From: Eledone cirrhosa
Lineage: Eukaryota
Reading direction: 5' to 3'
Length of the DNA stretch: 64,000 nucleotides
Assembly: GCA_964016885.1 (NCBI GenBank)
Contig: OZ024755.1
Span: forward strand, 17,918,001 to 17,982,000
This document shows, piece by piece, positions 10,976-58,633 of the stretch; the stretch's first letter is position 1; each line of letters opens with the position of its first letter. Position numbers and translations under genes: made by a program. The notes below the pieces were generated by a model. That model was not told the origin of the DNA and ran no database searches. It saw nothing but the letters and a program-made list of their open reading frames with translations.

Positions 10976-12308
10976 CATGGACGTCTTTACCGTTTCCATC
11001 TACCGAATTCATTCACATTGTATTAGTCAGCCTGACACTATAGTAGAAGACACAGTTGTGCAGTAAACTTAACCACAAAGCCATTTGAAAAGATATCCTA
11101 TATTTTTTAATATTGTTGAATTTTCAATTCAAGAACTTTATTCTTCATTACTTTGGTTTAATCCAACCACACAATCTAAATATTTTATCAAATTATTCCA
11201 TTGCTTTCATTACTATGTCAATAATAATTCGGCAGCTCTTAAATGGTTTGGTGTCGTGCAGGTGAGAAATGGTGGGCTAGATTGAAAACAACCAATTTTA
11301 TTCTATTCCTTTACATATATATATATATGTATTATACACACACCTACACTTACTATATATATATATCATCATCATCACCATTTTACGTTCGTTCTTCCAC
11401 GCTAGCATGGGTTAGACGGGTTGTCCTGTTGTGGGCAGTGTCCAGTTGACTGACCCTGTCTTGCTCATACGGGAACTGATTCTGGCTTGATTTCTACAGC
11501 TGGATGCCCTTCCTAACACCAACCTCATTTACAGTGAGTGCTGGGTGCTTTTTTTCCGTGGCGCCTACACGTCCACTTTACAGAGTGGACTGGGTGCTTT
11601 TTTGCCATGGCACCTCCATGACCACTTTGCACACACATTAAAGCAATGGAATAATACACACACACACACATCATCATCATCATCGTTTAACGTCCATATT
11701 CCACACTTTGGACGGGAGTTTTCCCACTTGAGGCAAGAGTGGTTGTCTTGGTCGCATAGGACTGTCTGGCGGGTTTTCTACGGCTGGATGCCCTTCCTAA
11801 CACCAACCACATTTACATGTATATATATTTATTTAATCTACTCTAATTTAAAAAATTCTATTTTTTTTTTGTAAATTATTAATTTTACCTTTCTAAATAT
11901 AAGAATATTTTAAATATGAAGCCTTAATGGAAGAGTAAATTAGAATATTTGGCTTTCATGGTTTTCACAAGACCTCCATTTTAAAATGTAATATAAAGTT
12001 TCAAGTTTTAATCCTTTTTGATCAGATTAATAGTTAAGCTTATAAAATTTTCTCTGTTTTTCCTTATTGACCAATATGTTTCACTTGGAGATATTTCTAC
12101 CATATTGCCATTAGTTTAATGGTAAACTAGTTCAATTTACAACCAAGAATTCCTGGTTTCTTGGGCAAGGGTTTTCTACTGCAGTCCCTCAGGTTCACTA
12201 GTGCTTTAAGAGTGATGTTTGGTATTTTGATAAACAGAGACTGTGTGGAAGACCATGATGTCTACATTGAATACATACATACATATACTTCATGTGTGTA
12301 TGTGTGTA

Positions 12309-14949: not shown

Positions 14950-15139
14950 AGGAGTAAGTAAGACCCCGACGGCTGAGCTCAAGCCGTTTCGACGGCTAAT
15001 TCTGTACAGAATTAGCCGTCGAAACGGGTTGAGCTCAGCCGTCGGGGTCTTACTTACTCCTATTACCCACTCTACTACCCTAAGTATTGAGTACTTTGGT
15101 GCGTTATGGTCCACTTGGTTCCTTACCACTTTTCCCTCG

Positions 15140-15140
<1 letters not shown>
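14950..15140 (+). mobile_element. Penelope-like/retrozyme-type terminal fragment with a 112-bp near-perfect palindrome
   Basis: 14950-15061 palindrome centred on tgtaca (1 mismatch) containing GAAA-stem III-UC, then the family tail ctattacccactctactaccctaagtattgagtact; embedded in (TA)n. Confidence 0.6.
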
Positions 15141-15194
<54 letters not shown>

Positions 15195-15399
15195 TATACG
15201 CGCATACAGAGTTAATACACATTGCATACAGATTTAATACATACACGCACACACAGAGTTAATACACACGCAAACAATATAGACTTGACTCGCTCTTGTT
15301 TTTAAGGCATGGATGATGCAAAATCTGATTTCCTCTAATTGTGTAGCCTTGTGCCAAGAAAATCAACACATACACACATATATATATATATATATATAT

Positions 15400-15593
15400 A
15401 ACGGAGTTGTGGTAATGAACCAGATGGACCATAACGCACCAGAGTACTCAATACTTAGGGTAGTAGAGTGGGTAATAGGAAAATGTATGACCCCGACGGC
15501 AGAGCTCAAGCCGTTTCGATGGCTATTTCTGGACTCCAGAAATAACCGTCGAAACGGCTTGAGCTCTGCCGTCGGGGTCATACATTTTCCTAT
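15400..15593 (-). mobile_element. Second copy of the same palindromic element, inverted
   Basis: Tail at 15400-15475 is the reverse complement of the family tail; palindrome 15475-15593 has a 1-nt loop. Confidence 0.6.
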
Positions 15594-26332: not shown

Positions 26333-29294
26333 AAATCATTTTTGTATAGGTAATCTAGAACCACATATTTTACTTAATACCGGGATGTTATTCCAGGGAA
26401 ATTTAGTTGCCCTATCTAGCAGGTTAACCGACCATGTAGAAGCTCCCCCATTCTTTGGCTGATGAAGATTATAATTAATAATAATTACCAATATGGCAAT
26501 CCTGTATCTTTATCATTGAAATGTATTTTGTCATAAAGTGGAAGATTCATGGCTTACTGGTTAAAGAATTGGTTTCGCAAACATGAGGTTTTGATTTTGA
26601 TTCCCGGACCAGGTGATGCTTTATGTCCTTGCAGAAGACACTTTATTTCATGTTGCTCCTTCTACCAGGAGTTGTGATAATATCAGCAATGGTGCTTTTT
26701 ATTGCATCACCAAAACAACTCATTGACAAGCCTGACTGGGCACTTTTAATTATGACACCAAAACTTTTGATAATACCTTGACCTTCACTGATACAGGAAG
26801 TTGGCTATTTCTGTAGTAATTAACACCATAGGGATAGTGATAGCGTTAACAAACAAAGTATACAATATTTAGGTAACATTTGAGACATATGATCTGGAGT
26901 TAAACTCTTAACATCCTGTAATGGTTTAGCAGAAAATATCTAGACATGGATTTGTGAATTTAAATGTTTTATAATATCTTTACTAGTGAATAAAACATTG
27001 TGAAAATTTAGAGTCTTTTTTGTTGCAGAAATTGTTAGAACATTGGATAGAATGCTTTGTGGTACTTGTTCCGCATCTCTGAGTTCAAATCCTATCGAGG
27101 TCAATTTTGTCTTTTATCTTTTCAAGATCTATAAATAAAGTACAAATCCAGTACTGGGGTCAATTCTTCCTATATATCTCTTTCCTACTTTCACTCTCAT
27201 TCTCTCTTTCCTTCTCTTCAAAAAATCACCTGTGTTCAGACCTGGAGAGAGAGCACGGGCTCCGCCAGGTTTTAAAAAATGACCAAAATACACCATATGC
27301 CCCCCCCCCTCCCCCCTTCCTACGACTTCATCAGGAGATACAAGTTCATTCATACATTCAGGTCAGGTCTCCAGTCAGAGGAAAACTCTCTCCCTTGTTC
27401 CTTAGTCTTTGGTGGAGGATTGTATGGTCATGATTGTTCTCCTTCCTCTGACTTGCACCGCCATTTTCTTTTTATTTGTTTCACTTTTTGATGAATCAAG
27501 TTCAGGTTTCAGTCTCAATTATCAGAAATGTTTAGATCTATCATCATCATCATCATCATCATCATCATCTAACCTCTGTTTTTCCACACTTGCATGGGTT
27601 GAACAGGTTCTCACATTATGAGACATGTCAGGTCAGAAGACCATATCTCGCTCATACAGATCTCTATTTTGGCTAGGTTTCTACAACTGGATGCTCTTCC
27701 TAACACTAAACTTGTAAAACTTTTAAGACCCACTTTGTTAGATAATTTGGTGCACAAAATAGACAGACTACCGCAAACCTGCTTTTTCAAATAATACTGG
27801 GACAATGTTAAATTAAGTACCTTGTTCAAGGATACAATACAACACCCAAGAGATATGTTTATGATTTTATTTGCTTATTAATTCATGTTCTGACCCCACT
27901 GTTAGTTCTACAATATTGTGGTTTAGAATAGCTATGCCGTATCCTTCTATGTGTCATGAGAGCTAACTAAAAGAGTTGACTCAACCAAGGGTATTCAGAT
28001 GTAAAAACATTGCCTCAAAATGGAGTGACTTCATGAGTATGACGTTTGTCATGTACACAATAATCGCTTTCTAAATCTCCTAAATATGAAACGGGTTGTT
28101 TATGAACTCTACAATGTTTAATTTCAAAAAATATATACATATTTGATAACTTTCAGTGAGTATTGGCCCAGGTCATGTCTAACTTAACAACACCACCTGG
28201 TGAAGTCTTTCAGATCATGATTCACATCCCAGTCATATTTTTGGCACCATGGCCCACTCTAGTAGAAAGTTGTTATTTTCTGAGACATAGTGTAGAGGGT
28301 TTATCCGGAATTTCTTGGAGGAATTTGTCCAGAGACACTTTGAATTTTATATCTGTTTCTGTTCTGATGTGTGATATTAAAGAGTGCTGGACCAGTCGAG
28401 GTGAAACAGTTCTGCTGTAATGTTATGAAATGCTAGTTTATATATGCACACACATACACATATATGCACTCACATACACATATATGCACTCACACTCATT
28501 TTTGCTTATGTTGTTTTTTTAACGTTTTCATTAATAAATTTTTATCAACTTTCTGAAGCTGTTTGTTTTGTTTTGTATTCTCTGAAATATGTATAGCTGC
28601 TATTGGTTAGGAATATACAATTAAAACTAATTCACATGTTGGACTTCAACCCTAATGGAAAGCTGCAAGTGTTAAAAAACAAAAAATTATAAGATTTTAT
28701 CTCTGAACTTTTTCACTTTTGGACTAGATTTCATTTTAATTGTTTAAACTAGGTTTCATTTTAAATTCATTTGCTTGAGGTCAAATTTTCATTTATTGTT
28801 GTTTACATTTGTTGAAAAAACCCTTATATATGCTAATCTGAATATAAGCCGACCCCCTTTTTTATGTCTGAGAAATAGGTAAATATCCAAATCCCGTGTA
28901 TAAGCTGAGGCATGTAATCAACACATTATGTTTAAATGGTGTGGTTTTGAAATTCTCATGAGTGGAAAATATATTTATGAAGTTTTAATATTTCCATATT
29001 TAAAACGTTTTAAGTGTCGTTTTGTTTCACATCTCAATCATGTAATGATTTTTAACCAATTTCCAACAGTTTTGAAGGCTATATTTAAAAAAAAAAACAT
29101 TAAAAAACAATAGAAATTTCACCTTGAAAGTGAAACTGATGTAATATTCATCTCCAAAGGGAAAGTATTTTACACTTCATTTATGTAGAATTTGAAATTG
29201 GTGAAAATTTACAAAATAGTGGCCTCGAGTATGTGCCCCCCCCCCCTCCCAATTTTACCATCAAATTTTTGGTCACATTAAATGATAATGATAG

Positions 29295-30817: not shown

Positions 30818-32176
30818 ACCCTTTTGTTACCTGCCCAGCCAAAACTGGTTCTGAATCTATGAAATAAAACCACCCATTTTAAAGGTTTCCTATTTAAATT
30901 AAAATCTTCCAATATAATTTTATTTAAGAACCTTACATTAAGTTACTATCTTAGTAATGAAATAATTAATAATTTTAGTAAATCTTTCAAAATTAATTAA
31001 TTAAAACAGACTGTATTTCATTAGAAATGCGGTCATGAAACTGTCTGAAATCACCCCTGGTTCTCCAATACAAAACTGCTTGTTTTAAAGTGGCTTAGTG
31101 GTTAGAGAATTGGATCCACAATCATGAGGTCATGCATTCCATTCCCAGACCGGGTGTTGCATTATGTCCTTGATCAAGACACTTTATTTCACATTGCTCT
31201 TTCTGCCAGTAGTTGCAACCAATAGATAGTATCAGCAATAGAAAGACCAATGGAAACATTGTTTCCTTGGTGCGATTTGATGAGCTCCACCCAACTCCGT
31301 AAGCAAATGAGGTCTGGGATCTTGTCAATCAATCGATTCTCCATTTTTTTATTTCTATTTTCAAACCTTCATAATTCTATGTAAGAACCTTTGTTAATTT
31401 ATGTTCCAAACACCAGATAAATAACGAGGATGTAAGTTATATTACTAAATCTCTTTAAATTCCTGATAATTTTGAAAATGATTTTAAAATATTGTAAAGA
31501 AAGGTTTAAATATTTATAACTACTGAAAAGAATTAAAGAAACTGTACTAGTATCTTGGAAGTTCTTTACCTTTGGGTCGTTCTCTCTCTTTCTTTCATTC
31601 AGATTGCTTATCTCTGTTTGCCTTATTGACCATATAAAATGACCATGCTGATCATGAAAGGTTTAAGGACTAACTAGTTGTCCAGTATTAGTCTCCACAA
31701 GTTAAAGCAGAGTTCTGTACTTTGCTCAGAAGCATAGTAGCACAATGGCTCTAAGATCAAATTTAACTCTTTTGACCATGTAGGTTAACATCACAGCCAA
31801 TAAGCTTTATATTAAATTTATATATCTAAATAAATCCCCAGCAAAATATCTGTTATTTATTTAAACTCAAGACTTTTGAGATGATAATCTAACAATGTAG
31901 TTATTCAGTCTTTTTCCTCCTACATAAGCAACTCTGCAGTTATCTGTTTGACAGCTTTATCTTCTGTTTCTTATATAGTTTGGTTATTTTATCTGATAAA
32001 ATATGGCTTTTTATGAAATCAAGAAGCCTTGGATTTGTTGGGAAGAAGATTATGTGGCGTTTATGCCTTTCTTTGATAAAATATGGGTTGTTATGAAATC
32101 AAGAAACCTTGGGTTTGTTGGGAAGAAGATTATGTGGAGTTTATGCCTTTCTTTGATAAAATATGTTTTATTTAAT

Positions 32177-41900: not shown

Positions 41901-42419
41901 ACTACAGTCAGTAGGCACCTCTAACAAAAATACACCCCCGTCTAACTACCCCCACCCCATCCACACCACCCCTTTCAATGTAAAGTTATGTTGGTAACAC
42001 AACATCCAGTCCGAAACAAATGAGGTTGTGTAGGTGTCACGACAAAAAAAACACACAGTCCACGCTGTAATGTGGCCGTGTAGGCAACACGGTAAAAACC
42101 TCCCAGTCCACACTGTAAACGTGGTTGGTGTTAGGAAGGGCATCCAGCCGTAGAAAACCCGCCAGACAGTCCTATGCGAGCAAGACAACCACTCTTGCCT
42201 CAAGTGGGAAAACTCCCGTCCAAACCCATGCAAGCGTGGAAGATGGACGTTAAACGGTGATGATGATGATGATGATATATGGTTATGGGGTTCTATTTCC
42301 AAAACTATAGGATGAGTTTGTGAACAAACAAACACACAAACTACAACTTTATATATATAGATATAAGTGAATAGACATGCACATACATACATACATACAT
42401 ATATATATACATTACAAAG

Positions 42420-42593
42420 AAAGTGTGGTAAGAAACCAAGTGGACCATAATGCACCAGAGTACTCGATACTTAGGGTAGTCGAGTGGGTAATAGGAAAAG
42501 AGTCAGGACCCCTACAGCTGAGCTCTGGCCGTTTCGACAGCTAGACCCGAACTAAACCAGTACTGGTTTAGTTCAGATCTGACTCTTTTCCTA
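42420..42593 (-). mobile_element. Third copy of the palindromic hammerhead-half element (right arm partly deleted)
   Basis: Family tail; outer arms ataggaaaagagtcag/ctgactcttttcctat; centre ccagtactgg. Confidence 0.6.
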
Positions 42594-43480
42594 TATATAT
42601 ATGAACAACACACACACATATATGTAATATAAATAATTTATATATGTATACACATATATATATATATATATATATCATATGTATTATATATGTATAATGT
42701 ATAAATATATAATAAATATATATTCCTAACGATCGACTTTCGTCAAATCGGACCGAGGAAACAGTGTTTCCATTGGTCTTTCCAATTGCTAATACTATCT
42801 ATTGGTCGCAACTCCAAGTAGAAGGAGCAACGTGAAATAAAGTGTCTTGCTCAAGGACATAACGCATCACCCGGTCCAGGAATCGAACTCACAACCTCAC
42901 GATTGCGAATCCAGTTCTCGACCCACTCAGCCACACATAAATATATATATATGTATAAATATGTAATAAATATAAATATATAATGTATAAATATATAATA
43001 AATATATTGGAATATAATGTGGGGAGCCCCAAGAAGACCTGGGATGAGGTGATAAAAGCCGACCTTACCCTACAGCTGTAGAAATCAAGCCAAAATCTGT
43101 TCCTGTATGAGCAAGGCATGGTCAGCCGACCAGACACTGCCCACAACAGGACAACCCATCTAACCCATGCTAGCGTGGAAGAATGAACGTAGAACGGTGA
43201 TGATGATATAATATATATATATATATGTTTATAATATATATATATATATATAATATATATATATATATGTTTATAATATATATATATATATATAAATGGA
43301 AAAAATGAAATTTCATTTCTCACTCTTAGTACGGCTGATACTTAAATATAAGTATGTATACGTACATACATACAGATGTACACTAGTATGTATATACATA
43401 CATACATGCACACATATATATATGTACGTATGGGTTTAGCGAAGATTTATTATATTGCTCGGTTTATAATATACATATAT

Positions 43481-43797
43481 GGGAAAATGTATGACCCCGA
43501 CGGCAGAACTCAAGCCGTTTCGACGGCTATTTCTGGACTAAATTAGAATTTTTATCGTGGTAAATAAATAGCCAAACTTTTCAAGGGGTAATTCCTTATA
43601 TGGGAAGATTGTAGTTGTCAAGAGGATTGGTCAAAATTTCTTGTAAACACAATTAAGTATTTCAAGAAAGACTTAATTGTGTTTACAATTTCTTGTAAAC
43701 ACAATTAAGTCTTTCTTGAAATACTTAATTGTGTTGACAAGAAATTTTGACCAATCCTATTTTCCTATTACCCACTCTACTAAGTATTGAGTACTCC
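43481..43797 (+). mobile_element. Fourth copy of the same element, interrupted by a different 136-bp palindrome (43623-43758)
   Basis: Left arm at 43481-43539, family tail at 43759-43797; inserted palindrome with a tttc loop at 43689-43692. Confidence 0.6.
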
Positions 43798-44360: not shown

Positions 44361-44619
44361 TAAACCTCGCCTGTCTCTCTTACTCCAGATAATAGAACAG
44401 AGGACTTTGTTAAAAGCTTTCTCTGGAAGAAATCTGCTGTATACTTCTTTGTGTTGTTAGCAGCCAACACACTCAAGTGTAAAAGAAAAAAACTTTATTT
44501 CATATTGTTCCAGTACCCTCAGTAGTTAGGGAGTAAATCCCGCGATAGATCGGTATCCTATCAAGGGAGAATATTGTACTCTGAGACACTTAACAAGGAA
44601 ACCCAATGATAAACATAGA

Positions 44620-45250
44620 ACAAACTTTATATATACTAATTTTTCAATTTACAGAAATATGTATATTAACTTACATATTAATTGTTCGGCATATATCTAC
44701 TAAATACTAATAGTTTATATATAGAAACGGAATGAGAGTAAGGTAACACATAATATATGTTGAGGCGTGTTATCTAGCTTTCTTTCTGCTTCTATATTAA
44801 ACAAACAAAAAAAAAATTTTTTAGATTTAAGTATGACTAATTTATAGAGTATTATTGTGTTGACGTACGTAGCGCTTCGGACTTCATCGCCTACTTATGT
44901 ATGGCGTGGCCATTCTATGTGTCGGAAGATCAAATCGCGGCCTCAGCAGCCGGAACTATTTGCAAGATTGCTTTATGCTAGCATGCGTCCTGGACTGCGT
45001 GAGCAATTATTTTTGCTTTCCCTTTATTTAGAGTTACCTCCTCTTTATGGAACTCTTCTCTTTTTTTTATTGACTTCCGGTTCTTTGAAAAAAATTCATT
45101 TTGGATATTACTTTCCTTATGTATGGAGGTACGTAATGTTTTCTTTGCACGAACTATCTTACACTTTATGTCAATAACTCTCACATTTTGGATATTGTGT
45201 TCACGTGAAGAGGTATTTTATGTGGCTTTCTGGAACATCTTCACCCACTA
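44620..45250 (+). mobile_element. Family B repeat (left arm of the composite)
   Basis: Homologous to 39540-39960 and, in reverse complement, to 50847-51330; also at 54090-54735 and 54950-55610. Confidence 0.7.
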
Positions 45251-45709
45251 GACACATGTTTTCTTTTAAATTAAAAAAACTACACATTATAAACATCATT
45301 CTGTAGATATTTCTTTACTGAATACATAGTAAACCTTGTCAACACTAGCAGATATTCTTGAGACACAAAAATAGGTTTTACTATCTTCTCTTTTTGCTAT
45401 ATACTGTCTACTAAGAAAAATATATAAACCTTCTCTATATACAGCTACATTTTTATTATCTTTCTTTCTTTCATACCCAATGAAGCATGGCACCTTCATT
45501 TCTCGCACACATGTATTATCTTGTACGTAGAAAGTAACCTTTTGTTGTCCAACTAATGGCTACTGTGTGATTTGGAGCAACGTGAAATAAAGTGTCTTGC
45601 TCAAGAACACAACGCAAAGTCCGGTCTGAGAATCGAACTCACGATTGTAAAGTCCGACGACTTAAGTTTTGAACGAATTTGTTTTCGATATCATCATCGT
45701 AATCAAAGA

Positions 45710-48100
45710 TTAACTGTTGATCAGTGTTAACTAGATCGATATCACTTTAACCCACGTAACATAGAACCATTTACATTCTTCTTACGATTCTTTGTTCCCT
45801 TTTAACAATTAACTGTTAATCAGATCGATATCACATCAACCCACGTAACATAGAACCATTTACATTCTTAGTTCCTTTTCAACACTTAACTGTTACTTAG
45901 TGTTAACTAGATCGATATCACATTTACCCACGTAACATAGAACCTTTACATTCTTACTTTGTTTTCAACACTTAACTGTTAGTTAGTGTTAACTAGATCG
46001 ATATCACATTTACCCACGTAACATAGAACCTTTACATTCTTAGTTTCTTTTCAACACTTAACTGTTAGTTAGTTAGTGTTAACTAGATCGATATCACATT
46101 TACCCACGTAACATAGAACCTTTACATTCTTAGTTTCTTTTCAACACTTAACTGTTAGTGTTAACTAGATCGATATCACATTTACCCACGTAACATAGAA
46201 CCTTTACATTGTTTGTTCCTTTTCAACACTTAACTGTTAGTTAGTTAGTGTTAACTAGATCGATATCACATTTACCCACGTAACATAGAACCTTTACATT
46301 CTTAGTTTCTTTGTTCCTTTTCAACACTTAACTGTTAGTTAGTGTTAACTAGATCGATATCACATTTACCCACGTAACATAGAACTTTTACATTCTTTGT
46401 TTCTTTTCAACACTTAACTGTTAGTTAGTGTTAACTAGATCGATATCACATTTACCCACGTAACATAGAACCTTTACATTCTTAGTTTCTTTGTTCCTTT
46501 TCAACACTTAACTGTTAGTTAGTGTTAACTAGATCGATATCACATTTACCCACGTAACATAGAACTTTTACATTCTTTGTTTCTTTTCAACACTTAACTG
46601 TTAGTTAGTGTTAACTAGATCGATATCACATTTACCCACGTAACATAGAACCTTTACATTCTTAGTTTCTTTGTTCCTTTTCAACACTTAACTGTTAGTT
46701 AGTGTTAACTAGATCGATATCACATTTACCCACGTAACATAGAACTTTTACATTCTTTGTTTCTTTTCAACACTTAACTGTTAGTTAGTGTTAACTAGAT
46801 CGATATCACATTTACCCACGTAACATAGAACCTTTACATTCTTAGTTTCTTTGTTCCTTTTCAACACTTAACTGTTAGTTAGTGTTAACTAGATCGATAT
46901 CACATTTACCCACGTAACATAGAACTTTTACATTCTTTGTTTCTTTTCAACACTTAACTGTTAGTTAGTGTTAACTAGATCGATATCACATTTACCCACG
47001 TAACATAGAACTTTTACATTCTTTGTTTCTTTTCAACACTTAACTGTTAGTTAGTGTTAGTTAGATCGATATCACATTTACCCACGTAACATAGAACTTT
47101 TACATTCTTTGTTCCTTTTCAACACTTAACTGTTAGTTAGTGTTAACTAGATCGATATCACATTTACCCACGTAACATAGAACCTTTACATTCTTAGTTT
47201 CTTTTCAACACTTAACTGTTAGTTAGTGTTAACTAGATCGATATCACATTAACCCACGTAACATAGAACCTTTACATTCTTAGTTTCTTTTCAACACTTA
47301 ACTGTTAGTTAGTTAGTGTTAACTAGATCGATATCACATTTACCCACGTAACATAGAACCTTTACATTCTTAGTTTCTTTTCAACACTTAACTGTTAGTT
47401 AGTGTTAACTAGATCGATATCACATTTACCCACGTAACATAGAACCTTTACATTCTTAGTTTCTTTTCAACACTTAACTGTTAGTTAGTGTTAACTAGAT
47501 CGATATCACATTTACCCACGTAACATAGAACCTTTACATTGTTTGTTCCTTTTCAACACTTAACTGTTAGTTAGTGTTAACTAGATCGATATCACATTTA
47601 CCTACGTAACATAGAACCTTTACATTCTTAGTTTCTTTGTTCCTTTTCAACACTTAACTGTTAGTTAGTGTTAACTAGATCGATATCACATTTACCTACG
47701 TAACATAGAACCTTTACATTCTTAGTTTCTTTGTTCCTTTTCAACACTTAACTGTTAGTTAGTGTTAACTAGATCGATATCACATTTACCTACGTAACAG
47801 AACCTTTACATTCTTAGTTTCTTTTCAACACTTAACTGTTAGTTAGTTAGTGTTAACTAGATCGATATCACATTAACCCACGTAACATAGAACCTTTACA
47901 TTCTTAGTTTCTTTTCAACACTTAACTGTTAGTTAGTTAGTGTTAACTAGATCGATATCACATTTACCCACGTAACATAGAACCTTTACATTCTTTGTTC
48001 CTTTTCAACACTTAACTATTAGTTAGTGTTAACTAGATCGATATCACATTAACCCACGTAACATAGAACCTTTACTTTTTAAGTTCCTTTTCAACACTTT
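45710..48100. repeat. 86/90/94-bp satellite array (~27 units) including a 180-bp dimeric higher-order repeat
   Basis: Unit ttttcaacacttaactgttagttagtgttaactagatcgatatcacatttacccacgtaacatagaacctttacattcttagtttc; exact 180-bp period over 46261-46980. Confidence 0.95.
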
Positions 48101-48449
48101 ATTTACATTCTTAGTTTCTTTTTTCGTCATTGACATTCCTAAAAGACAACTAAGAATGTAAATGAAGTTTCTTTCTTTAATTGTTGTTGTTTTTTTAGAT
48201 AATCAAATCGATATCGCTTTAACTGTTAATCTACGTAACTAATAACCATTTACATTCTTTCTTTAAGAAAATTCATATACATTTTTAGTTGCCTCTATTT
48301 AAATATATATATAAGAAAAGACAAAATCGGATGAATTTTATAAAGTTTAATATTCTTTTTATTGATAACGTATGTAAATGACTTTCATTTCTTTTTACAG
48401 ATGTCCAGCCTTCAAGTTCATATGCTGTGTTGTTTGGCGTAGTTTCTGT

Positions 48450-48670
48450 TAATAAAGAAAATTTACATGTTGATTCCGTCATAAATGAATAAAGAAAATG
48501 TACATAATATATACGAATTGTATTCCATTTATTTTGCCATAAACGAATAAAGAAAATTTACATATCATATACGAATTGTATTCAGTTTATTTTGCCATAA
48601 ATGAATAAAGAAAATTTACATAATATATACGAATTGAATTCAGTTTATTTTGCCAAAAATGAATCAAGAA
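48450..48670. repeat. 58-bp tandem repeat (~3.5 units; ~4.5 units at 57945-58220)
   Basis: ataaa(t/c)gaataaagaaaatttacata...tacgaattgtattccatttattttgcc. Confidence 0.85.
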
Positions 48671-48816
48671 ACCGTGAAGTTTCTAAATAAAGAAGCTAAG
48701 AATGTTTTTTTTCTCCACATCAGATGATACTCATGCCTGGATCGAGGAACTGATGTTGCTCAAGCGAGGTAAAAAAAAAAATTAAAAAGGGCTCCCTCTG
48801 CGAATGAACTGAAAAG

Positions 48817-48960
48817 TCAAGGGAGGTAACTCTTCCTTAGTAAGAGTTACCTCCCTTAAAAAAAAAATTTTTTTTTAAAGGGAGATAACTATTATCTCCC
48901 TTTAAAAATTTTTTTTTTAAAGGGAGATAACTCTTACTTTTGAAGAGTTACCTCCCTTGA
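48817..48960. other. 144-bp nested palindrome of six alternating GGGAG(G/A)TAA motifs
   Basis: Perfect 19-bp termini tcaagggaggtaactcttc/gaagagttacctcccttga; three internal hairpins separated by AnTn tracts. Confidence 0.9.
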
Positions 48961-48974
48961 TTAGTGTTTTAAAA

Positions 48975-49197
48975 AGAAACTAAGAATGTATATGAAGTGT
49001 CTATAAAGAAACTAAGAATGTAGATGAAGTGTCTATAAAGAATCTAAATGAAGTGTCTAAAAAGAATCTAGATGAAGTGTCTATAAAGAATCTAGATGAA
49101 GTGTCTAAAAAGAATCTAAATGAAGTGTCTATAAAGAATCTAGATGAAGTGTCTATAAAGAATCTAAATGAAGTGTCTATAAAGAATCTAAATGAAA
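48975..49197. repeat. 24-bp tandem repeat (tctataaagaatctaaatgaagtg)
   Basis: About 8 units; shorter array at 58513-58633. Confidence 0.9.
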
Positions 49198-50846
49198 CTA
49201 TATGAAATGTGTGTTTTTGAAAGTGTCAAAAAAAATTCTATATGAAATGAGTGTTTTTGAAAAGTCGAAAAAAAATTCTATATGAAATGTGTGTTTTTGA
49301 AAAGTCGAAAAAAATTTCTATATGAAATGAGTGTTTTTGAAAAGTCGAAAAAAAATTCTATATGAAATGTGTGTTTTTGAAAAGTCGAAAAAAAATTCTA
49401 TATGAAATGTGTGTTTTTGAAAAGTCGAAAAAAAATTCTATATGAAATGTGTGTTTTTGAAAAGTCGAAAAAAAATTCCATATGAAATGAGTGTTTTTGA
49501 AAAGTTGAAAAAAAATTCTATATGAAATGTGTGTTTTTGAAAAGTCGAAAAAAAATTCCATATGAAATGTGTGTTTTTGAAAAGTCGAAAAAAATTCTAT
49601 ATGAAATGTGTGTTTTTGAAAAGTCGAAAAAAAATTCTATATGAAATGTGTGTTTTTGAAAAGTCGAAAAAAAATTCTATATGAAATGTGTGTTTTTGAA
49701 AAGTCGAAAAAAAATTCTATATGAAATGTGTGTTTTTGAAAAGTCGAAAAAAAATTCTATATGAAATGTGTGTTTTTGAAAAGTCGAAAAAAAATTCTAT
49801 ATGAAATGAGTGTTTTTGAAAAGTCGAAAAAAAATTCTATATGAAATGAGTGTTTTTGAAAAGTCGAAAAAAAATTCTATATGAAATGTGTGTTTTTGAA
49901 AAGTCGAAAAAAAATTCTATATGAAATGAGTGTTTTTGAAAAGTCGAAAAAAAATTCTATATGAAATGTGTGTTTTTGAAAAGTTGAAAAAAAATTCTAT
50001 ATGAAATGAGTGTTTTTGAAAAGTCGAAAAAAAATTCTATATGAAATGTGTGATTTTGAAAAGTCGAAAAAAAATTCTATATGAAATGTGTGATTTTGAA
50101 AAGTCGAAAAAAAATTCTATATGAAATGAGTGTTTTTGAAAAGTCGAAAAAAAATTCTATATGAAATGTGTGTTTTTGAAAAGTCGAAAAAAAATTCTAT
50201 ATGAAATGTGTGTTTTTGAAAAGTCGAAAAAAAATTCTATATGAAATGAGTGTTTTTGAAAAGTCGAAAAAAAATTCTATATGAAATGTGTGCTTTTGAA
50301 AAGTCGAAAAAAAATTCTATATGAAATGAGTGTTTTTGAAAAGTCGAAAAAAAATTCTATATGAAATGTGTGTTTTTGAAAAGTCGAAAAAAAATTCTAT
50401 ATGAAATGTGTGTTTTTGAAAAGTCGAAAAAAAATTCTATATGAAATGAGTGTTTTTGAAAAGTCGAAAAAAAATTCTATATGAAATGTGTGTTTTTGAA
50501 AAGTCGAAAAAAATTTTATATGAAATGAGTGTTTTTGAAAAGTCGAAAAAAAATTCTATATGAAATGTGTGTTTTTGAAAAGTCGAAAAAAAATTCTATA
50601 TGAAATGTGTGTTTTTGAAAAGTCGAAAAAAAATTCTATATGAAATGAGTGTTTTTGAAAAGTCGAAAAAAAATTCTATATGAAATGTGTGTTTTTGAAA
50701 AGTCGAAAAAAAATTCTATATGAAATGAGTGTTTTTGAAAAGTCGAAAAAAAATTCTATATGAAATGTGTGTTTTTGAAAAGTCGAAAAAAAATTCTATA
50801 TGAAATGAGTGTTTTTGAAAAGTCGAAAAAAAATTCTATATGAAAT
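49198..50846. repeat. 40-bp A-tract satellite (~41 units)
   Basis: Unit ttctatatgaaatg(t/a)gtgtttttgaaaagtcgaaaaaaaa. Confidence 0.95.
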
Positions 50847-51330
50847 TTGTTTTCTTTCAAACAACCGGAAGTCAATCGAAAAAAGAGTTAAATAAAGGGA
50901 GATAATTCTAACATTTTTTAGCAAAAGGGGGTAAGGCGGATTCTCATCGTGGTCTAGGACGCAGGCCAGCATATAGCCAGCCTGCAAACATCCCAGCCGC
51001 CGTAGCCACGTGCACACCACAACGATTCGAACTTGGGATACATAGTATGGAAACGACACATACATACGTAGCCGACGACGTCCGAGCCGTTGCGCGCATC
51101 GCCACGCACAAGCCGCAATTCTACTAAGTAAAATAGATATATTTATAGGTACAATTTTATTTACTTTTTTAAAAAAAAATATAGAAACGGAAAGGGAGAT
51201 AACACGTCTCAAAATATATTCCGTATGTTATCTCACTCATTCCGTTTCTATATATAAAGTAATTTTGAACGTATATACGGAACAATTTTTATGGAAATAA
51301 ATATACTTATGTCAAGCTGGTAACATATAT
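50847..51330 (-). mobile_element. Family B repeat, diverged inverted copy (right arm)
   Basis: accggaagtcaat and gataacacgtctcaaaatatatt...cactcattccgtttctatatata are reverse complements of motifs in 44715-45090. Confidence 0.75.
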
Positions 51331-51349
51331 ATTACCTCCGTTTAGACGG

Positions 51350-52635
51350 CAGTCCAGCAACATTATTGACTTGCTTCTTTCGCCCTCATACCTGATACTG
51401 ACCAGCTTTAGTTGGCCGTACGACATCCTATGGTACGTATACGCTATAAAACTGCTTCTTTGGCCATAGGAGATACTATGTGAAGTATATGCTTCTCTCG
51501 CCCTCTAAGCTTGTAGTGACTAGGGTTCAGCTGGCCGTAGGAAATACGCTGGGAAGTATGCATTCTAAAACTGCTTCTTTCAGCCTCTGACCACAGATTA
51601 TCGTACGAGAAGTTTACTCCCTTAAAGTGCTTCAATCGCCATCACGACATTGACCAGGGTTTAGCTGGCTGTAGAGGTTCCTACGAGATGTTTACACCCT
51701 CTAAACAGGCACTGATCATGGTTTAGCTGGCCGTAGAGGATCCCACGAGAAGTATACGGCCTTAAACTGCTTATTTCACCATCTAACTTGGCATTGACCA
51801 AGCTTTTGCTGGCCGTAGCGGATCGTACGAGATATTTACGCCCTTAAAGTGCTTCAATCGCCCGCTCTGTGGAGACGGGTGGTTTAGCTGGCTGTAGAGG
51901 ATCCTACGAGATGTTTAGGCACTGATTATGGTTTAGCTGGCCGTAGAGAGTCCCACGAGAAGTATACGGCCTTAAACTGCTTATTTCACCATCTAACTTG
52001 GCATTGACCAAGGTTTAGAGGATCGTACGAGATGTTTACGTGCTTCAATCGCCCGCTCTGTGGAGACGGGTAGTTTAGCTGGCTGTAGAGGATCCTACGA
52101 GATGTTTACGCCCTCTAAGTAGGCACTGATTATGGTTTAAGTGATCGTACGAGATGTTTACAGGCACTGATCATGGTTTAGCTGGCTGTAGAGGATGTTT
52201 ACGCCCTCTAAGTAGGCACTGGTTATGGTTTAGCTGATCGTACGAGATGTTTACGCCCTCTAAACAGGCACTGATCATGGTTTAGCTGGCCGTAGAGGAT
52301 CCCACGAGAAGTATACGGCCTTAAACTGCTTATTTCACCATCTAACTTGGCATTGACTAAGGTTTAGCTGGCCGTAGAGTATCGTACGAGATGTTTACGC
52401 CCTTAAAGTGCTTCACTCGCCCGCTTTGTGGAGACGGGTGGTTTAGCTGGCTGTAGAGGATCCTACGAGATGTTTACGCCCTCTAAGTAGGCACTCATTA
52501 TGGTTTAGCTGATCGTACGAGATGTTTACGCCCTCTAAACAGGCACTGATCATGGTTTAGCTGGCCGTAGAGGATTTCCACGAGAAGTATACGGCCTTAA
52601 ACTGCTTATTTCACCTTCTCACCTGGAATTGACCA
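51350..52635 (-). repeat. Complex ~50-85 bp satellite (ggtttagctggccgtagaggatcc..cgagaagtatacggccttaaactgct)
   Basis: Recurrent sub-units with block duplications; second copy at 61410-62682. Confidence 0.85.
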
Positions 52636-53355
52636 ACTATGGAGGAGGGTGGTTTTGGTGTGCCATGTAGGTATACTTCAATGGTTCTAACTGTTTACTA
52701 TGAGTGGCAGATTGACAATCAACTGCACACACATGTAAAGTGGAACAGGCATAAGCAATAACATTATCATATCTGGATTGCTTTGGAAACGTAAGATAAT
52801 GTAGCATGATCAATCGATCACGTAACAGTTAACACCATTGAAATACAACACTACGTGTAGATGTTGCAGTAGCTAAACAAAACTATCGTTTCAATAATTA
52901 TTGCTGACGTTTATGGAAGTAAATAAACATAAAACTGTTCAACATAAAATAAAACTTTACTTTACCTCCTTATAAATAGTAAAATCCAAGTTTTTAACGT
53001 TTTTCATTCGGGTTGGAAAAAAAAGGAAATTGTTCCAGATGCCATTTTGTTTTTGCGAAACAGAATTAGGCCAATTACGCATGCGCAAAAAAGTAGACAT
53101 CAGTACGCATGTGCAAAAAAGTAGACACCAGTGCGCATGCGCAAAGTATTTAAAGCCATTGCGACTTCACGATCGTGAGTTCAATTCTTTTAGATTGTAT
53201 ACTTCCCATTTTATATATAGTATATATATATATTTATATAAATAATTACTATATATATTAATACGTACATATATATGTATTTATACACATATATATAAAT
53301 TATTTGTATATGAATAAATATGTATATATATTATATACATACATATTTATTTCTA

Positions 53356-53420
53356 CTAGCTAAACTACCTGTCCTTTGGACGGTTCATGTAGCTCATTAA
53401 AGTAAATTTGAATGCATACT
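53356..53420 (-). mobile_element. Helitron-like 3' terminus
   Basis: Minus strand: gtcc-aaa-ggac hairpin, then aggtagtttagCTAG|T; repeated at 63377. Confidence 0.55.
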
Positions 53421-53877
53421 AGAAAAACGTACTTTATGTAAACATGAAAACCTTAGACACTATTCCAGCGAAATGATATTGTTATTATCTTTGTTTCAAG
53501 TAGTATAAATTGCTGGTTGTGAAGTTATTATCTTTGTTTCAAGTCGAAGGTTATAGATTGCTGGTTGTGAAATATACGAAATGATATTGTTATTATCTTT
53601 GTTCAAGTAGAAAGAGTAAATTAAAACCCGACTGACGCTAATTACGAAAGATAATTCTTGATTAGGAAACATAACTCTTGTGTTACTTAATCACGAAAAT
53701 CCACACAGTCTAATTACATCATTATTCACTAATCGGTGTGTTGTATATGTCACCTTGATTAATCAACATGTTTACCATAAGTATATATATAGGCCCCCAA
53801 TGGCCTATATACACTGCCCCTTTTCCTCTAACCAGCATCTATTACTTCCCTTTATCCACACACAGGTACAACATTGA

Positions 53878-54737
53878 TGCACCACATTATTATCTTTGTT
53901 TCTATTACTTCCCTCTATCCACACACAGATACAACATAGCAGCCAACACACTCAAGTGTAAAAGAAAAAAAATCTTATTTCATATTGTTCCAGTAGTTAG
54001 GGAGTAAATCCCGCGATAGATCGCTATCCTATCAAGGGAGAATCTTGTACTCTGAGACACTTAACAAGGAAACCTAATTATAAACTTAGAACAAACTTTA
54101 TATATACTAATTTTTTCAATTTACAGAAACATGTATATTAACTTACATATTAATTGTTCGGCATATATCTACTAAATGCTAATAGTTTTTTAATTAATTT
54201 ATATATAGAAACGGAATGAGAGTAAGGTAACACATAATATATGTTGAGGCGTGTTATCTAGCTTTCTTTCTGCTTCTATATTAAACAAACAACAAAAAAA
54301 AATTTTAGATTTAAGTATGACTAATTTATAGAGTATTATTGTGTTGACGCACGTAGCGGTTCGGACTTCATCGCCTACTTATGTATGGCGTGGCCATTCT
54401 ATGTGTCGGAAATCAAATCGCGGCCTCAGCAGCCGGAACAATTTGCAAGATTGCTTTATGCTAGCATGCGTCCTGGACTGCGTGAGCAATTATTTTTGCT
54501 TTCCCTTTATTTAGAGTTACCTCCTCTTTATTGAACTATTCTCTTTTTTTTATTGACTTCCGGTTCTTTGAAAAAATTCATTTTGGATATTACTTTCCTT
54601 ATGTATGGAGGTACGTAATGTTTTCTTTGCTCGAACTATCTTACACTTTATGTCAATAACTCTCACATTTTGGATATTGTGTTTATGTGGCTTTCTGGAA
54701 CATCTTCACCCACTAGACACATGTTTTCTTTTAAATA
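53878..54737 (+). repeat. ~860-bp extra partial repeat at the junction of the large duplication
   Basis: accacattattatctttg...tagcagccaacac...family B occurs at 53881 and again at 54739. Confidence 0.9.
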
Positions 54738-56059
54738 AACCACATTATTATCTTTGTTTCTATTACTTCCCTCTATCCACACACAGATACAACATAGCAG
54801 CCAACACACTCAAGTGTAAAAGAAAAAAACCTTATTTCATATTGTTCCAGTAGTTAGGGAGTAAATCCCGCGATTGATCGCTATCCTATCAAGGGAGAGT
54901 CTTGTACTCTGAGACACTTAACAAAAAAACCCAATGATAAACTTAGAACAAACTTTATATATACTAATTTTTTCAATTTACAGAAACAAGTATATTAACT
55001 TACATATTAATTGTTCGGCATATATCTACTAAATACTAATAGTTTTTAAATTAATTTATATATAGAAACGGAATGAGAGTGAGGTAACACATAATATATG
55101 TTGAGGCGTGTTATCTAGCTTTCTTTCTGCTTCTATATTAAACAAACAAAAAAAAATTTTTTTAGATTTAAGTATGACTAATTTATAGAGTATTATTGTG
55201 TTGACGCACGTAGCGGTTCGGACTTCATCGCCTACTTATGTATGGCGTGGCCATTCTATGTGTCGGAAGATCAAATCGCGGCCGCCGGAACTATTTGCAA
55301 GATTGCTTTATACTAGCATGCATCCTGGACTGCGTGAGCAATTATTTTTGCTTTCCCTTTATTTAGAGTTACCTCCTCTTTATGGAACTCTTCTCTTTTT
55401 TTTATTGACTTCCGGTTCTTTGAAAAGAATTCATTTTGGATATTACTTTCCTTATGTATGGAGGTTATGGAGGTACGTAATGTTTTCTTTGCTCGAACTA
55501 TCTTACACTTTATGTCAATAACTCTCACATTTTGGATATTGTGTTCACGTGAAGAGGTATTTTATGTGGCTTTCTGGAACATCTTCACCCACTAGACACA
55601 TGTTTTCTTTTAAATTAAAAAAACTACACATTATAAACATCATTCTGTAGATATTTCTTTATTGAATACATAGTAAACCTTGTCAACACTAGCAGATATT
55701 CTTGAGACACAAAAATAGGTTTTACTATCTTCTCTTTTTGCTATATACTGTCTACTAAGAAAAATATATAAACCTTCTCTATATACAGCTACATTTTTAT
55801 TATCTTTATTTCTTTCATACCCAATGAAGCATGGCAGCTTCATTTCTCGCACCCATTTATTATCTTGTACGTAGAAAGTAACCTTTTGTTGTCCAACTAT
55901 TGCTACTGTGTGATTTGGAGCAACGTGAAATAAAGTGTCTTGCTCAAGAACACCACTCAAGAACACCACCGGTCTGAGAATCGAACTCACGATTGTAAAG
56001 TCCGACGACTTAAGTTTTGAACGAATTTGTTTTCGATATCATCATCGTAATCAAAGATT

Positions 56060-57590
56060 AACTGTTGATCAGTGTTAACTAGATCGATATCACTTTAACC
56101 CACGTAACATAGAACCATTTACATTCTTCTTACGATTCTTTGATCCCTTTTAACAATTAACTGTTAATCAGATCGATATCACATCAACCCACGTAACATA
56201 GAACCATTTACATTCTTAGTTCCTTTTCAACACTTAACTGTTAGTTAGTGTTAACTAGATCGATATCACATTTACCTACGTAACATAGAACCTTTACATT
56301 CTTAGTTTCTTTGTTTCTTTTCAACACTTAACTGTTAGTTAGTGTTAACTAGATCGATATCACATTTACCTACGTAACATAGAACCTTTACATTCTTAGT
56401 TTCTTTGTTCCTTTTCAACACTTAACTGTTAGTTAGTGTTAACTAGATCGATATCACATTTACCTACGTAACATAGAACCTTTACATTCTTAGTTTCTTT
56501 GTTCCTTTTCAACACTTAACTGTTAGTTAGTGTTAACTAGATCGATATCACATTTACCTACGTAACATAGAACCTTTACATTCTTAGTTTCTTTTCAACA
56601 CTTGACTGTTGATTAGTGTTAACTAGATCGACGTAACATAGAACCATTTACATTCTTTGTTCCTTTTCAACACTTAACTGTTAGTTAGTGTTAACTAGAT
56701 CGATATCACATTTACCCACGTAACATAGAACTTTTACATTCTTTGTTCCTTTTCAACACTTAACTATTAGTTAGTGTTAACTAGATCGATATCACATTAA
56801 CCCACGTAACATAGAACCTTTACATTCTTAGTTTCTTTGTTCCTTTTCAACACTTAACTGTTAGTTAGTGTTAACTAGATCGATATCACATTTACCTACG
56901 TAACATAGAACCTTTACATTCTTAGTTTCTTTGTTCCTTTTCAACACTTAACTGTTAGTTAGTGTTAACTAGATCGATATCACATTTACCTACGTAACAT
57001 AGAACCTTTACATTCTTAGTTTCTTTGTTCCTTTTCAACACTTAACTGTTAGTTAGTGTTAACTAGATCGATATCACATTTACCTACGTAACATAGAACC
57101 TTTACATTCTTAGTTTCTTTGTTCCTTTTCAACACTTAACTGTTAGTTAGTGTTAGCTAGATCGATATCACATTTACCTACGTAACATAGAACCTTTACA
57201 TTCTTAGTTTCTTTGTTCCTTTTCAACACTTAACTGTTAGTTAGTGTTAACTAGATCGATATCACATTTACCTACGTAACATAGAACCTTTACATTCTTA
57301 GTTTCTTTGTTCCTTTTCAACACTTAACTGTTAGTTAGTGTTAACTAGATCGATATCACATTTACCTACGTAACATAGAACCTTTACATTCTTAGTTTCT
57401 TTGTTCCTTTTCAACACTTAACTGTTAGTTAGTGTTAACTAGATCGATATCACATTTACCCACGTAACATAGAACCTTTACATTCTTTGTTCCTTTTCAA
57501 CACTTAACTATTAGTTAGTGTTAACTAGATCGATATCACATTAACCCACGTAACATAAAACCTTTACTTTTTAAGTTCCTTTTCAACACT
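56060..57590. repeat. 86/94-bp satellite array, copy 2 (~16-17 units, mostly 94-bp 'cctacg' variant)
   Basis: Same unit as 45710-48100 with a different dominant variant. Confidence 0.95.
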
Positions 57591-58399
57591 TTATTTACAT
57601 TCTTAGTTTCTTTTTTCGTCATTGACATTCCTAAAAGACAACTAAGAATGTAAATGAAGTTTCTTTCTTTAATTGTTGTTGTTTTTTTAGATAATCAAAT
57701 CGATATCGCTTTAACTGTTAATCTACGTAACTAATAACCATTTACATTCTTTCTTTAAGAAAATTCATATACATTTTTAGTTGCCTCTATTTAAATATAT
57801 ATATAAGAAAAGACAAAATCGGATGAATTTTATAAAGTTTAATATTCTTTTTATTGATAACGTATGTAAATGACTTTCATTTCTTTTTACAGATGTCCAG
57901 CCTTCAAGTTCATATGCTGTGTTGTTTGGCGTAGTTTCTGTTAATAAAGAAAATTTACATGTTGATTCCGTCATAAATGAATAAAGAAAATGTACATAAT
58001 ATATACGAATTGTATTCCATTTATTTTGCCATAAACGAATAAAGAAAATTTACATATCATATACGAATTGTATTCCATTTATTTTGCCATAAACGAATAA
58101 AGAAAATTTACATATCATATACGAATTGTATTCCATTTATTTTGCCATAAACGAATAAAGAAAATTTACATATTATATACGAATTGAATTCTGTTTATTT
58201 TGCCAAAAATGAATCAAGAAACCGAGTAAAACGTACTATAAAGAACGTAAAGTGTATATGAAGTTTCTAAATAAAGAAGCTAAGAATGTTTTTTTTTCTC
58301 CACATCAGATGATACTCATGCCTGGATCGAGGAACTGATGTTGCTCAAGCGAAGTAAAAAAAAATAAGAAAGGGCTCCCTCTGCGAATGAACTGAAGAG

Positions 58400-58499
58400 T
58401 CAAGGGAGGTAACTCTTCCTTAGTAAGAGTTATCCCCCTTTAAATTTTTTTTTTTAAAAAGGGACATAACTCTTACTTTTGAAGAGTTACCTCCCTTGA
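58400..58499. other. 100-bp version of the nested palindrome (four motifs, central hairpin absent)
   Basis: Same 19-bp termini as 48817-48960. Confidence 0.9.
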
Positions 58500-58633
58500 T
58501 TAGTGTTTTAAATAGAAACTAAGAATGTAGATGAAGTGTCTATAAAGAATCTAAATGAAGTGTCTAAAAAGAATCTAAATGAAGTGTCTATAAAGAATCT
58601 AAATGAAGTGTCTATAAAGAATCTAAATGAAAC

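Follow-up and report, generated by a model that had tools for sequence, protein, structure and literature searches.

The window analysed here is a stretch of 64,000 nucleotides from Eledone cirrhosa (contig OZ024755.1, positions 17,918,001 to 17,982,000), and it contains four copies of one element, belonging to subfamilies A (copy 1), B (copies 2 and 4) and C (copy 3). Consistent with an earlier sequence-only reading, all four have a common tail, and the arm with GAAA, stem III, GUC and GGGGUC is as described; the GUA reported at the cleavage triplet of copy 3 was also confirmed. We numbered positions in the element from the first base of the 3' strand of stem II. A window scan placed the palindrome of copy 1 at 14950–15061 (56-bp arms, no spacer, one mismatch) and that of copy 2 at 15475–15593 (59-bp arms, a 1-nt spacer, two mismatches), both complete and of the lengths claimed. 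Copies 3 and 4 had been described as partial; copy 3 has an internally deleted arm, and copy 4 has a palindrome of its own at 43623–43758, with 66-bp arms and a centre ~100 nt upstream of the ribozyme. The central hairpin had been taken for stem II, but stem II is in fact a different helix, of 9 bp, with a loop of ~35 nt at its end, and it is this loop that holds the centres. Two of the four window copies (1 and 2) turn at the hot spot where most copies of the element turn; copies 3 and 4 turn upstream of it.

In copy 1, for which offsets are taken from the reference copy L341, the tail-less arm (14950–15007, minus strand) runs from the inner fixed start site (+52/53) back to -6, and the tail arm (15004–15143, plus strand) runs from -6 to the tail end (..CTCGCTAT). 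The two arms share a self-complementary GTAC at 15004–15007, and it is this overlap that leaves copy 1 with no spacer; overlaps of the GTAC type were seen in 11 of 52 two-armed subfamily A copies. The 3' half of the hammerhead occupies 15010–15049 on the plus strand, comprising the 3' strand of stem II (15010–15020), GAAA (15021–15024), stem III with a GAGCTC loop, GUC (15041–15043) and the 3' strand of stem I, and the CCTAT of the inner fixed start site (+53) lies at 15059–15063 on the same strand, at the 3' edge of distal stem I. The tail arm of copy 2 (15398–15535, minus strand) reaches -7, the predicted transcription start A being 15535, and the tail-less arm (15535–15593, plus strand) runs from -5 to +53; the G at 15536, before the start A, may be cap-derived or may be part of the partner arm. 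The tail arm of copy 3 (42411–42563, minus strand; reference L120) turns ~9 nt upstream of the hot spot, past a predicted start A at 42553, and the deleted tail-less arm (42560–42594, plus strand) ends in CCTAT. The GUA of copy 3 (42507–42515, minus strand) looks like a private change, since the other subfamily C copies among those listed mostly have GUC or the CpG-decay form GUU.

Copy 4 had been thought to lack the 5' half of the hammerhead. On the contrary, its tail-less arm (43479–43690, minus strand) contains an intact predicted hammerhead (43589–43493), with CCCC at 43588–43585, the core UUGAAAA at 43584–43578, G10.1 at 43577, GAAA at 43521–43518 and GUC at 43501–43499, all on the minus strand. 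A promoter, predicted from the end and extra-G data given below, would lie over stem and loop II (43533–43570, minus strand), with a TATA-like TATTTAT at 43570–43564 and an initiator-like TTAGTC whose +1 A is at 43539, a spacing of -31. The other arm (43691–43797, plus strand) is a mirror image as far as 43758; beyond that point the ribozyme region is deleted and part of the tail remains. Upstream of copy 4 lies the 3' region of the element, and the idea that an ORF ends there was rejected.

To estimate abundance, we sampled 80 evenly spaced 10-kb stretches of the 3.0-Gb genome and observed 17 clusters of the 3' region of the element, which scales to ~64,000 clusters genome-wide (Poisson range 37,000–102,000). 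Walking upstream from the 3' region led to an ORF for a reverse transcriptase (RT) and a GIY-YIG endonuclease; a single ORF with RT and C-terminal GIY-YIG is present in L341, L339 and L112, and it is broken in every copy seen. The full-length copy L341 consists of an inverted truncated repeat (1648–2144), a tandem repeat to 3423, the ORF, and a 3' repeat to 7130 that includes the tail. Four other loci (L115, L116, L118 and L126) contain kb-scale inverted pairs. Atlas look-alikes were found at 0.94–0.98, and some of their clusters carry RVT_1 and GIY-YIG; a Pfam scan of three pieces gave no match above the cut-off, and a PDB sequence search gave nothing useful. The combination of a partial tandem pseudo-LTR (pLTR), an inverted 5'-truncated copy and a tail (~80 nt) is the layout of an endonuclease-bearing (EN+) Penelope-like element (PLE), and an inverted truncated copy, a tail and a bias for (TA)n are textbook features of this class (PMC8557442). 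Judged by sequence, the window palindromes are stubs of an abundant Hydra-type Penelope-like retrotransposon inserted in (TA)n, in agreement with the earlier proposal of a hammerhead-bearing Penelope-like element with (TA)n targets, which L341 and the target flanks bear out.

We assign the element to the Hydra clade by its motifs, linker, endonuclease pattern and target. L341 has HSDKTGN (DKT) and RLRWRTFF (RWR, with R for the K of RWK), a linker CNCPDRSSC (CxCX5C), and CNLCSEE..LLNKKDELVTACKH in the endonuclease (CxxC and CxH around E and N); the endonuclease is without CCHH and has no CxxC before YIG, and the insertion target is (TA)n. The Hydra clade of C-terminal EN+ PLEs (Craig et al., 2021, PMC8557442) likewise has DKT, CxCX5C, CxxC plus CxH, no CCHH and (TA)n targets, together with a hammerhead in the pLTR and an inverted 5'-truncated copy plus tail. 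The element differs from the clade as described there in its 3,707-bp repeat unit in L341, which has an expanded minisatellite in the 3' region (Hydra units are "generally" <3 kb), in a tail of ~80 nt rather than 30–40, in its tens of thousands of stubs, and in a U3-A8 core with a long stem II. The Neptune clade was rejected because it has a CX2-5CxxC linker and CCHH. A DNA MITE was rejected too: there are no enclosing terminal inverted repeats, the tail is asymmetric, the centres vary and the parent encodes RT; target site duplications are unreadable within (TA)n. The tail had been expected to link either to Penelope GIY-YIG/RT ORFs or to tandem retrozyme units; the first link was found, in L341 and others, and the second was not, a non-LTR retrozyme (short ORF-less monomers in tandem, a hammerhead in every one) being excluded by copies that are stubs of an ORF-bearing element.

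Several further features of individual loci were observed. In L341 (3283–3520) and L339, the frame of the long ORF is open upstream through the tail and the 3' half of the ribozyme, with no ATG; the tail itself contains an upstream ATG and is closely followed by a pyrimidine tract that ends in TAG, a hint, by analogy with Penelope, of a short intron in the 5' UTR. Further palindromes that have hammerhead-like cores adjoin the element in the upstream flank of L084 (CTGATG..GAAA on the opposite strand) and in the flanks of L237 and L238, which suggests that several PLE families share (TA)n targets. At L028, the host sequence on one side of the insertion is repeated in inverted orientation on the other side, and the element may be at the centre of an older palindrome.

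We examined the predicted ribozyme in 243 distinct matches to its 3' half, among loci enriched for long copies; the 5' half was present in 75 of them. The core is UUGANAA (U3-A8) in subfamilies A, B, C and E, with GAAA and GUC, stem II has 9 bp plus a G10.1-C11.1 pair, and loop III carries the palindrome GAGCUC. Judged by core, GAAA and NUH triplet, this is a predicted type I hammerhead of the U3-A8 form, a swap reported earlier in the Cercyon PLEs of Schistosoma (Cervera and De la Pena, 2014, PMC4209133). The PLE hammerheads of that study are likewise type I, with U3-A8, an enlarged helix II, a short helix I, extra nucleotides at the 5' end of stem II and a palindromic loop 3; the element differs from them in a full 5-bp helix III and in a ~35-nt loop II that apparently holds the transcription start. 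It had been claimed that CUGANGA is missing from the palindromes and would be found upstream in intact copies. The palindromes do lack it; what they are truly missing is UUGANAA, which is seen in intact copies, and the expectation of CUGANGA fails in its literal form because the core is a U3-A8 variant. Subfamily D has the core CUGAGAA, a C3-A8 mismatch (L184, L116, L117 and L224); it has been amplified although this mismatch should impair cleavage.

Across 12 copies, 91.7% of cells were paired and three pairs changed on both sides, all from a single subfamily C copy, and 22–64 of 500 shuffles reached these pairing and covariation values. The constrained fold came to within 0.8 (B) and 2.5 (A) kcal/mol of the minimum and lay 13 kcal/mol above it for a truncated C copy; the unconstrained fold of copy 4 preferred an alternative AGCCGU-CGAA-ACGGCU hairpin (z -0.58), and an Rfam search of the window gave no family at gathering score. 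The 5' ends near the cut site are spread from +19 to +36, with a mild rise at +32 to +35 (45 loci, among the first 100 matches).

We next determined the ends of the arms. The subfamily A sample comprised all exact matches on one contig (C1; 71 of 74 parsed) and the subfamily B sample the first 70 matches in position order (69 parsed); strict end calls are noisy for older B copies, so B figures are from tolerant calls, which overshoot to -11 at a native quasi-palindrome. The outer end of the inverted arm was at +53 (CCTAT) in 51 of 54 A copies and 39 of 46 B copies, and the other arm extended to the end of the tail at +131/133. The two outer ends are thus ~80 nt apart, and both finish in TAT, matching the (TA)n target. 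In the anole Anolis carolinensis, the Poseidon element PAc (Frangieh et al., 2024, PMC11167929) has two internal RT start sites that likewise define the tail and lie downstream of the hammerhead, nicks and extends both strands of AT-rich targets, and is predicted to form a dimer. Our two fixed outer ends fit, by analogy, with such start sites, both-strand nicking and a dimer; the PAc starts are non-homologous to the target, whereas here both end in TAT. The portions of the PAc paper covered here do not address the inverted junction, the 5' end of the RNA or a cap G.

The inner (5') ends of the arms pile up at a hot spot. Within the position-ordered samples, 92/125 (A) and 76/115 (B) 5' ends were at -11 to -1. 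Genome-wide, 17,641 exact subfamily B arms reach -3 and 1,946 reach -13, a drop for which mutation over the ten additional bases accounts only in part. Solo arms stop at the same hot spot, and arms of subfamily C, which has a different loop sequence, stop at the aligned position as read by eye. The claim that centres cluster inside the stem II region was borne out by the samples and the genome-wide counts, with the centres in loop II, and this positional rule holds genome-wide. A depth step at the hot spot in run X1 (3.96 M to 0.17 M) is not a measure of copy number and was not used as evidence.

Arms that end at the hot spot frequently carry a G that is not native to the element. Among subfamily B arms that reach -7, a base other than T precedes the end in 4,315, and in 2,375 of these it is G; in subfamily A, G precedes 49 of the first 100 of 591 such ends. 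Ends at -6 (2,727 in B genome-wide) have G in 19 of the first 100. These letters, and those given next for joins to (TA)n, were counted by eye from listings. Joins made directly to (TA)n are informative because (TA)n cannot supply a G: B arms ending at -7 at such joins had G in 56, A in 15 and C in 12 of 83, about four of which are tandem repeats of one site, and A arms had G in 10, T in 6 and A in 1 of 17. In the control, ends at -4 joined to (TA)n, G was found once and A six times in just seven cases. The extra G was present in 20/27 as against 15/96 in sampled copies (p=2e-8), and 153 sites have the extra-G pattern on both arms, although templated inserts could also account for some of these cases (centres such as CTG or CCAG) and for the commonest centres. 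Four tandem 74-bp stubs at G000:C3:187250085-187250329 each consist of a TA-repeat, a G and the start site.

The sequence at the hot spot is TYAGT (TCAGTA, TTAGTC and TTAGTT in subfamilies A, B and C), which resembles the Drosophila initiator TCAKTY. Upstream of it, subfamilies A and B have a TATA-like word, TATTTAAA at -30 or TATTTATT at -31, and ~230 nt downstream is the likely ATG of the ORF, which L116 retains and which has mutated in L341 and L339. Penelope of Drosophila virilis carries an internal initiator (Inr) promoter in the pLTR, as does that of Adineta vaga, with TATA plus an Inr-like motif (PMC2377424, PMC3846280), and an untemplated G at the full-length 5' end of L1 has been interpreted as possibly copied from the mRNA cap (PMC9341517). 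Based on evidence from DNA (the pile-up of ends, the extra G, TYAGT, the TATA spacing and the position of the ORF), we infer that the hot spot is likely a capped transcription start where reverse transcriptase runs off. Several observations do not sit easily with this reading, among them the upstream turns of window copies 3 and 4. Before -7 ends, C occurs at -8 in 42 of the first 100 in B and T in 41 of the first 100 in A. The edge is not perfectly sharp, in that 5,329 B arms have T at -8, yet only 1,946 reach -13; chance T, mutation or minor upstream starts could have blurred it. Many arms stop 1–6 nt short of -7, which requires trimming, and L120, the sole intact subfamily C copy seen, has no TATA-like word.

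The same pile-up would be expected if two cDNAs were copied from a longer RNA bearing a roadblock, either a bound protein or a small hairpin in loop II, with the G as a sequence-dependent, non-templated addition. Such a hairpin is present in most subfamilies with its 3' foot at ~-6, and the share of ends between -8 and -12 fits an obstacle of this kind. However, the hairpin is weak and AU-rich, the G enrichment is at -7 only, the initiator-like word is conserved while the surrounding loop is variable, and the TATA spacing and ORF position suit a start site; we therefore consider a roadblock unlikely. A terminator-like stop behind the AGCCGU-CGAA-ACGGCU hairpin was dropped as a candidate, as it leaves the extra G unexplained.

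We then asked whether the junctions reflect one cDNA or two. The sequence-only reading had proposed that reverse transcriptase stalls at the ribozyme structure, after which the tail-primed cDNA folds back and recopies itself, and self-priming, probably on an antisense template, has been proposed for the palindromes found at the inverted junctions of Penelope in D. virilis and A. vaga (PMC2377424, PMC3846280); snap-back is also reported for R2 proteins (PMC11371274). The clustering of centres in the stem II region and the matching of arms within a copy agree with such a route. The tail-less arm, however, was longer than, equal to or shorter than the tail arm in 14, 19 and 16 of 52 subfamily A copies (strict calls; three unclear) and in 17, 4 and 25 of 46 subfamily B copies, and in L119 and L123 it is kb-long beside a short tail arm; a tail-primed cDNA cannot make such an arm by self-copying. 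Snap-back geometry (a stem of ≥2 bp and a loop of ≥3 nt, with the tail arm longer) was found at 4/52 junctions in A, where a native quasi-palindrome makes the fold-back geometry real, and at 1/46 in B. Fold-back of the other arm would account for five (A) and four (B), so that either arm could fold back at 9/52 in A. Of the B joins, 28/46 are blunt or have inserts, and L349 and L284 are blunt joins with zero loop.

Other features of the hot spot also argue against snap-back: solo arms end at the same site, the extra G is found on the tail-less arm and on both arms, and the enzyme would have to pass the stronger stems I, III and II and then stop in a loop. Either arm may have been shortened by later deletion, which would not, however, explain a cap G on the tail-less arm. 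The sharpness of the edge, together with the extra G, points to the capped 5' end of an RNA and not to structure. Hence arm lengths, geometry and the nature of the edge leave stalling at stem II followed by snap-back without support; as the main route it is largely refuted, and we regard it as quite improbable.

Arms do match within a copy and differ between copies, as had been claimed. A diagnostic segment was identical between the arms of 65 of 83 two-armed copies, as compared with a mean of 28 and a maximum of 41 in 10,000 shuffles, and when subfamily A was left out the figure was 22/36, versus 6 for shuffled copies. Because the arms share variants within a copy, both are likely to derive from a single RNA or a single locus; the matching could also be due to gene conversion. 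Either arm can be the longer and few junctions have snap-back geometry, which favours two cDNAs joined head to head. L1 twin priming likewise involves two primers on one insertion, but it inverts non-overlapping parts, whereas here the arms overlap and a palindrome results. The centres of L010, L015 and L018 contain repeated short templated inserts (GGTACCGAATT-like repeats), of a kind known from polymerase-theta-type end joining.

Another candidate for the hot spot is a 3' splice site, with the spliceosome or a lariat as roadblock, or with a trans-spliced or processed RNA end. In subfamilies A and B there is a branch-like CTRAT, a pyrimidine tract and YAG, a donor-like CAG|GCAAGT lies upstream, the reading frame is open from the hot spot, and in D. 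virilis the end of an intron overlaps the Penelope hammerhead (PMC4209133). Against this, the ends include the AG plus a G beyond it, and a normal ATG exists downstream. We found no spliced-junction copies with two genome-wide patterns, and no splice joint among the joints listed for contigs from three runs of unspecified kind (X1, X2 and X4). A splice site is thus very improbable. Least credible of all is a non-autonomous, MITE-like palindromic master element amplified with its centre already in place, for although one centre (CTGTACAG) recurs in 11/52 two-armed A copies, centres are highly diverse among copies and specific to each subfamily, the end site is shared by solo arms, and no terminal inverted repeats enclose the element.

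The reading that we consider probable is that two cDNAs, primed on both sides of the cut, run off the capped 5' end of the RNA and are then joined head to head. A Pol II promoter would overlap the ribozyme, with the TATA-like word in stem II and the initiator in loop II, so that the promoter-made mRNA would be without the 5' half of the ribozyme and would not self-cleave there. The enzyme would nick both strands of (TA)n, bind near the 5' end of the mRNA, and start at +61 and ~+140 from the transcription start, where UAU would pair with the (TA)n at the nick. If the template is promoter-made mRNA, the two cDNAs would both run off at the cap and could only be stubs, 61 and 140 nt long; their template could be a single RNA, or sister RNAs from the same locus. 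Template jumping or host end joining might then link the 3' ends, giving blunt joins, short overlaps and short insertions. ORF-bearing copies would arise only from read-through RNA that includes the downstream repeat.

A more specific version of the capped-start reading, to which we give an even chance, is that the element writes a Pol II promoter over its own hammerhead and that an enzyme acting as a dimer makes two copies of a single capped sense RNA and swaps the cDNA ends. The mRNA would then hold half a ribozyme, the whole fold would exist solely in read-through RNA, and the dimeric enzyme would use two fixed starts and read the cap. Palindrome formation had been said to destroy the ribozyme; our data do not support this, and it is likely that the 5' half was never in the template. 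The proposal of self-priming on an antisense template (PMC3846280) likewise differs from the sense capped template and two cDNAs that our data favour.

The formation of the inverted end and tail of PLEs, and the strand of the template RNA, are stated as open in the literature (PMC3846280, PMC8557442, PMC11167929). The element class described here is itself already known; what is changed is the route, the capped-start reading being well enough supported by sequence that we replace snap-back with it with reasonable confidence. The natural junctions of this family number in the thousands and favour a capped template of sense polarity, copied into two cDNAs with separate primers, and the reading makes predictions at the level of single bases, namely the start A, starts at +61 and ~+140, and a cap-dependent extra C. 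It also suggests why about nine-tenths of subfamily B arms are stubs that lack a promoter, and by what means the mRNA comes to exclude the ribozyme. If the more specific version, with a dimeric enzyme, is correct, tens of thousands of stubs would be a fossil record of a PLE integration intermediate, and the polarity of the template and the origin of the inverted repeats would be settled for the PLE class. A literature search found no paper linking inversion points to a capped start; most subscription papers lay outside its coverage.

The window contains other repeats in addition to the four copies. A block of ~10 kb is duplicated in direct orientation (44458–53855 and 53937–63878) with 93–97% identity; it is made of minisatellites with periods of 86–94, 58, 24, 40 and 52 bp, contains short palindromes at 48841–48894 and 58400–58499, and is possibly a large tandem mobile or satellite unit. 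SINE-like dispersed repeats occur as inverted pairs at 11354–11502 and 43073–43221, and at 26550–26677, 31090–31244 and 42780–42934.
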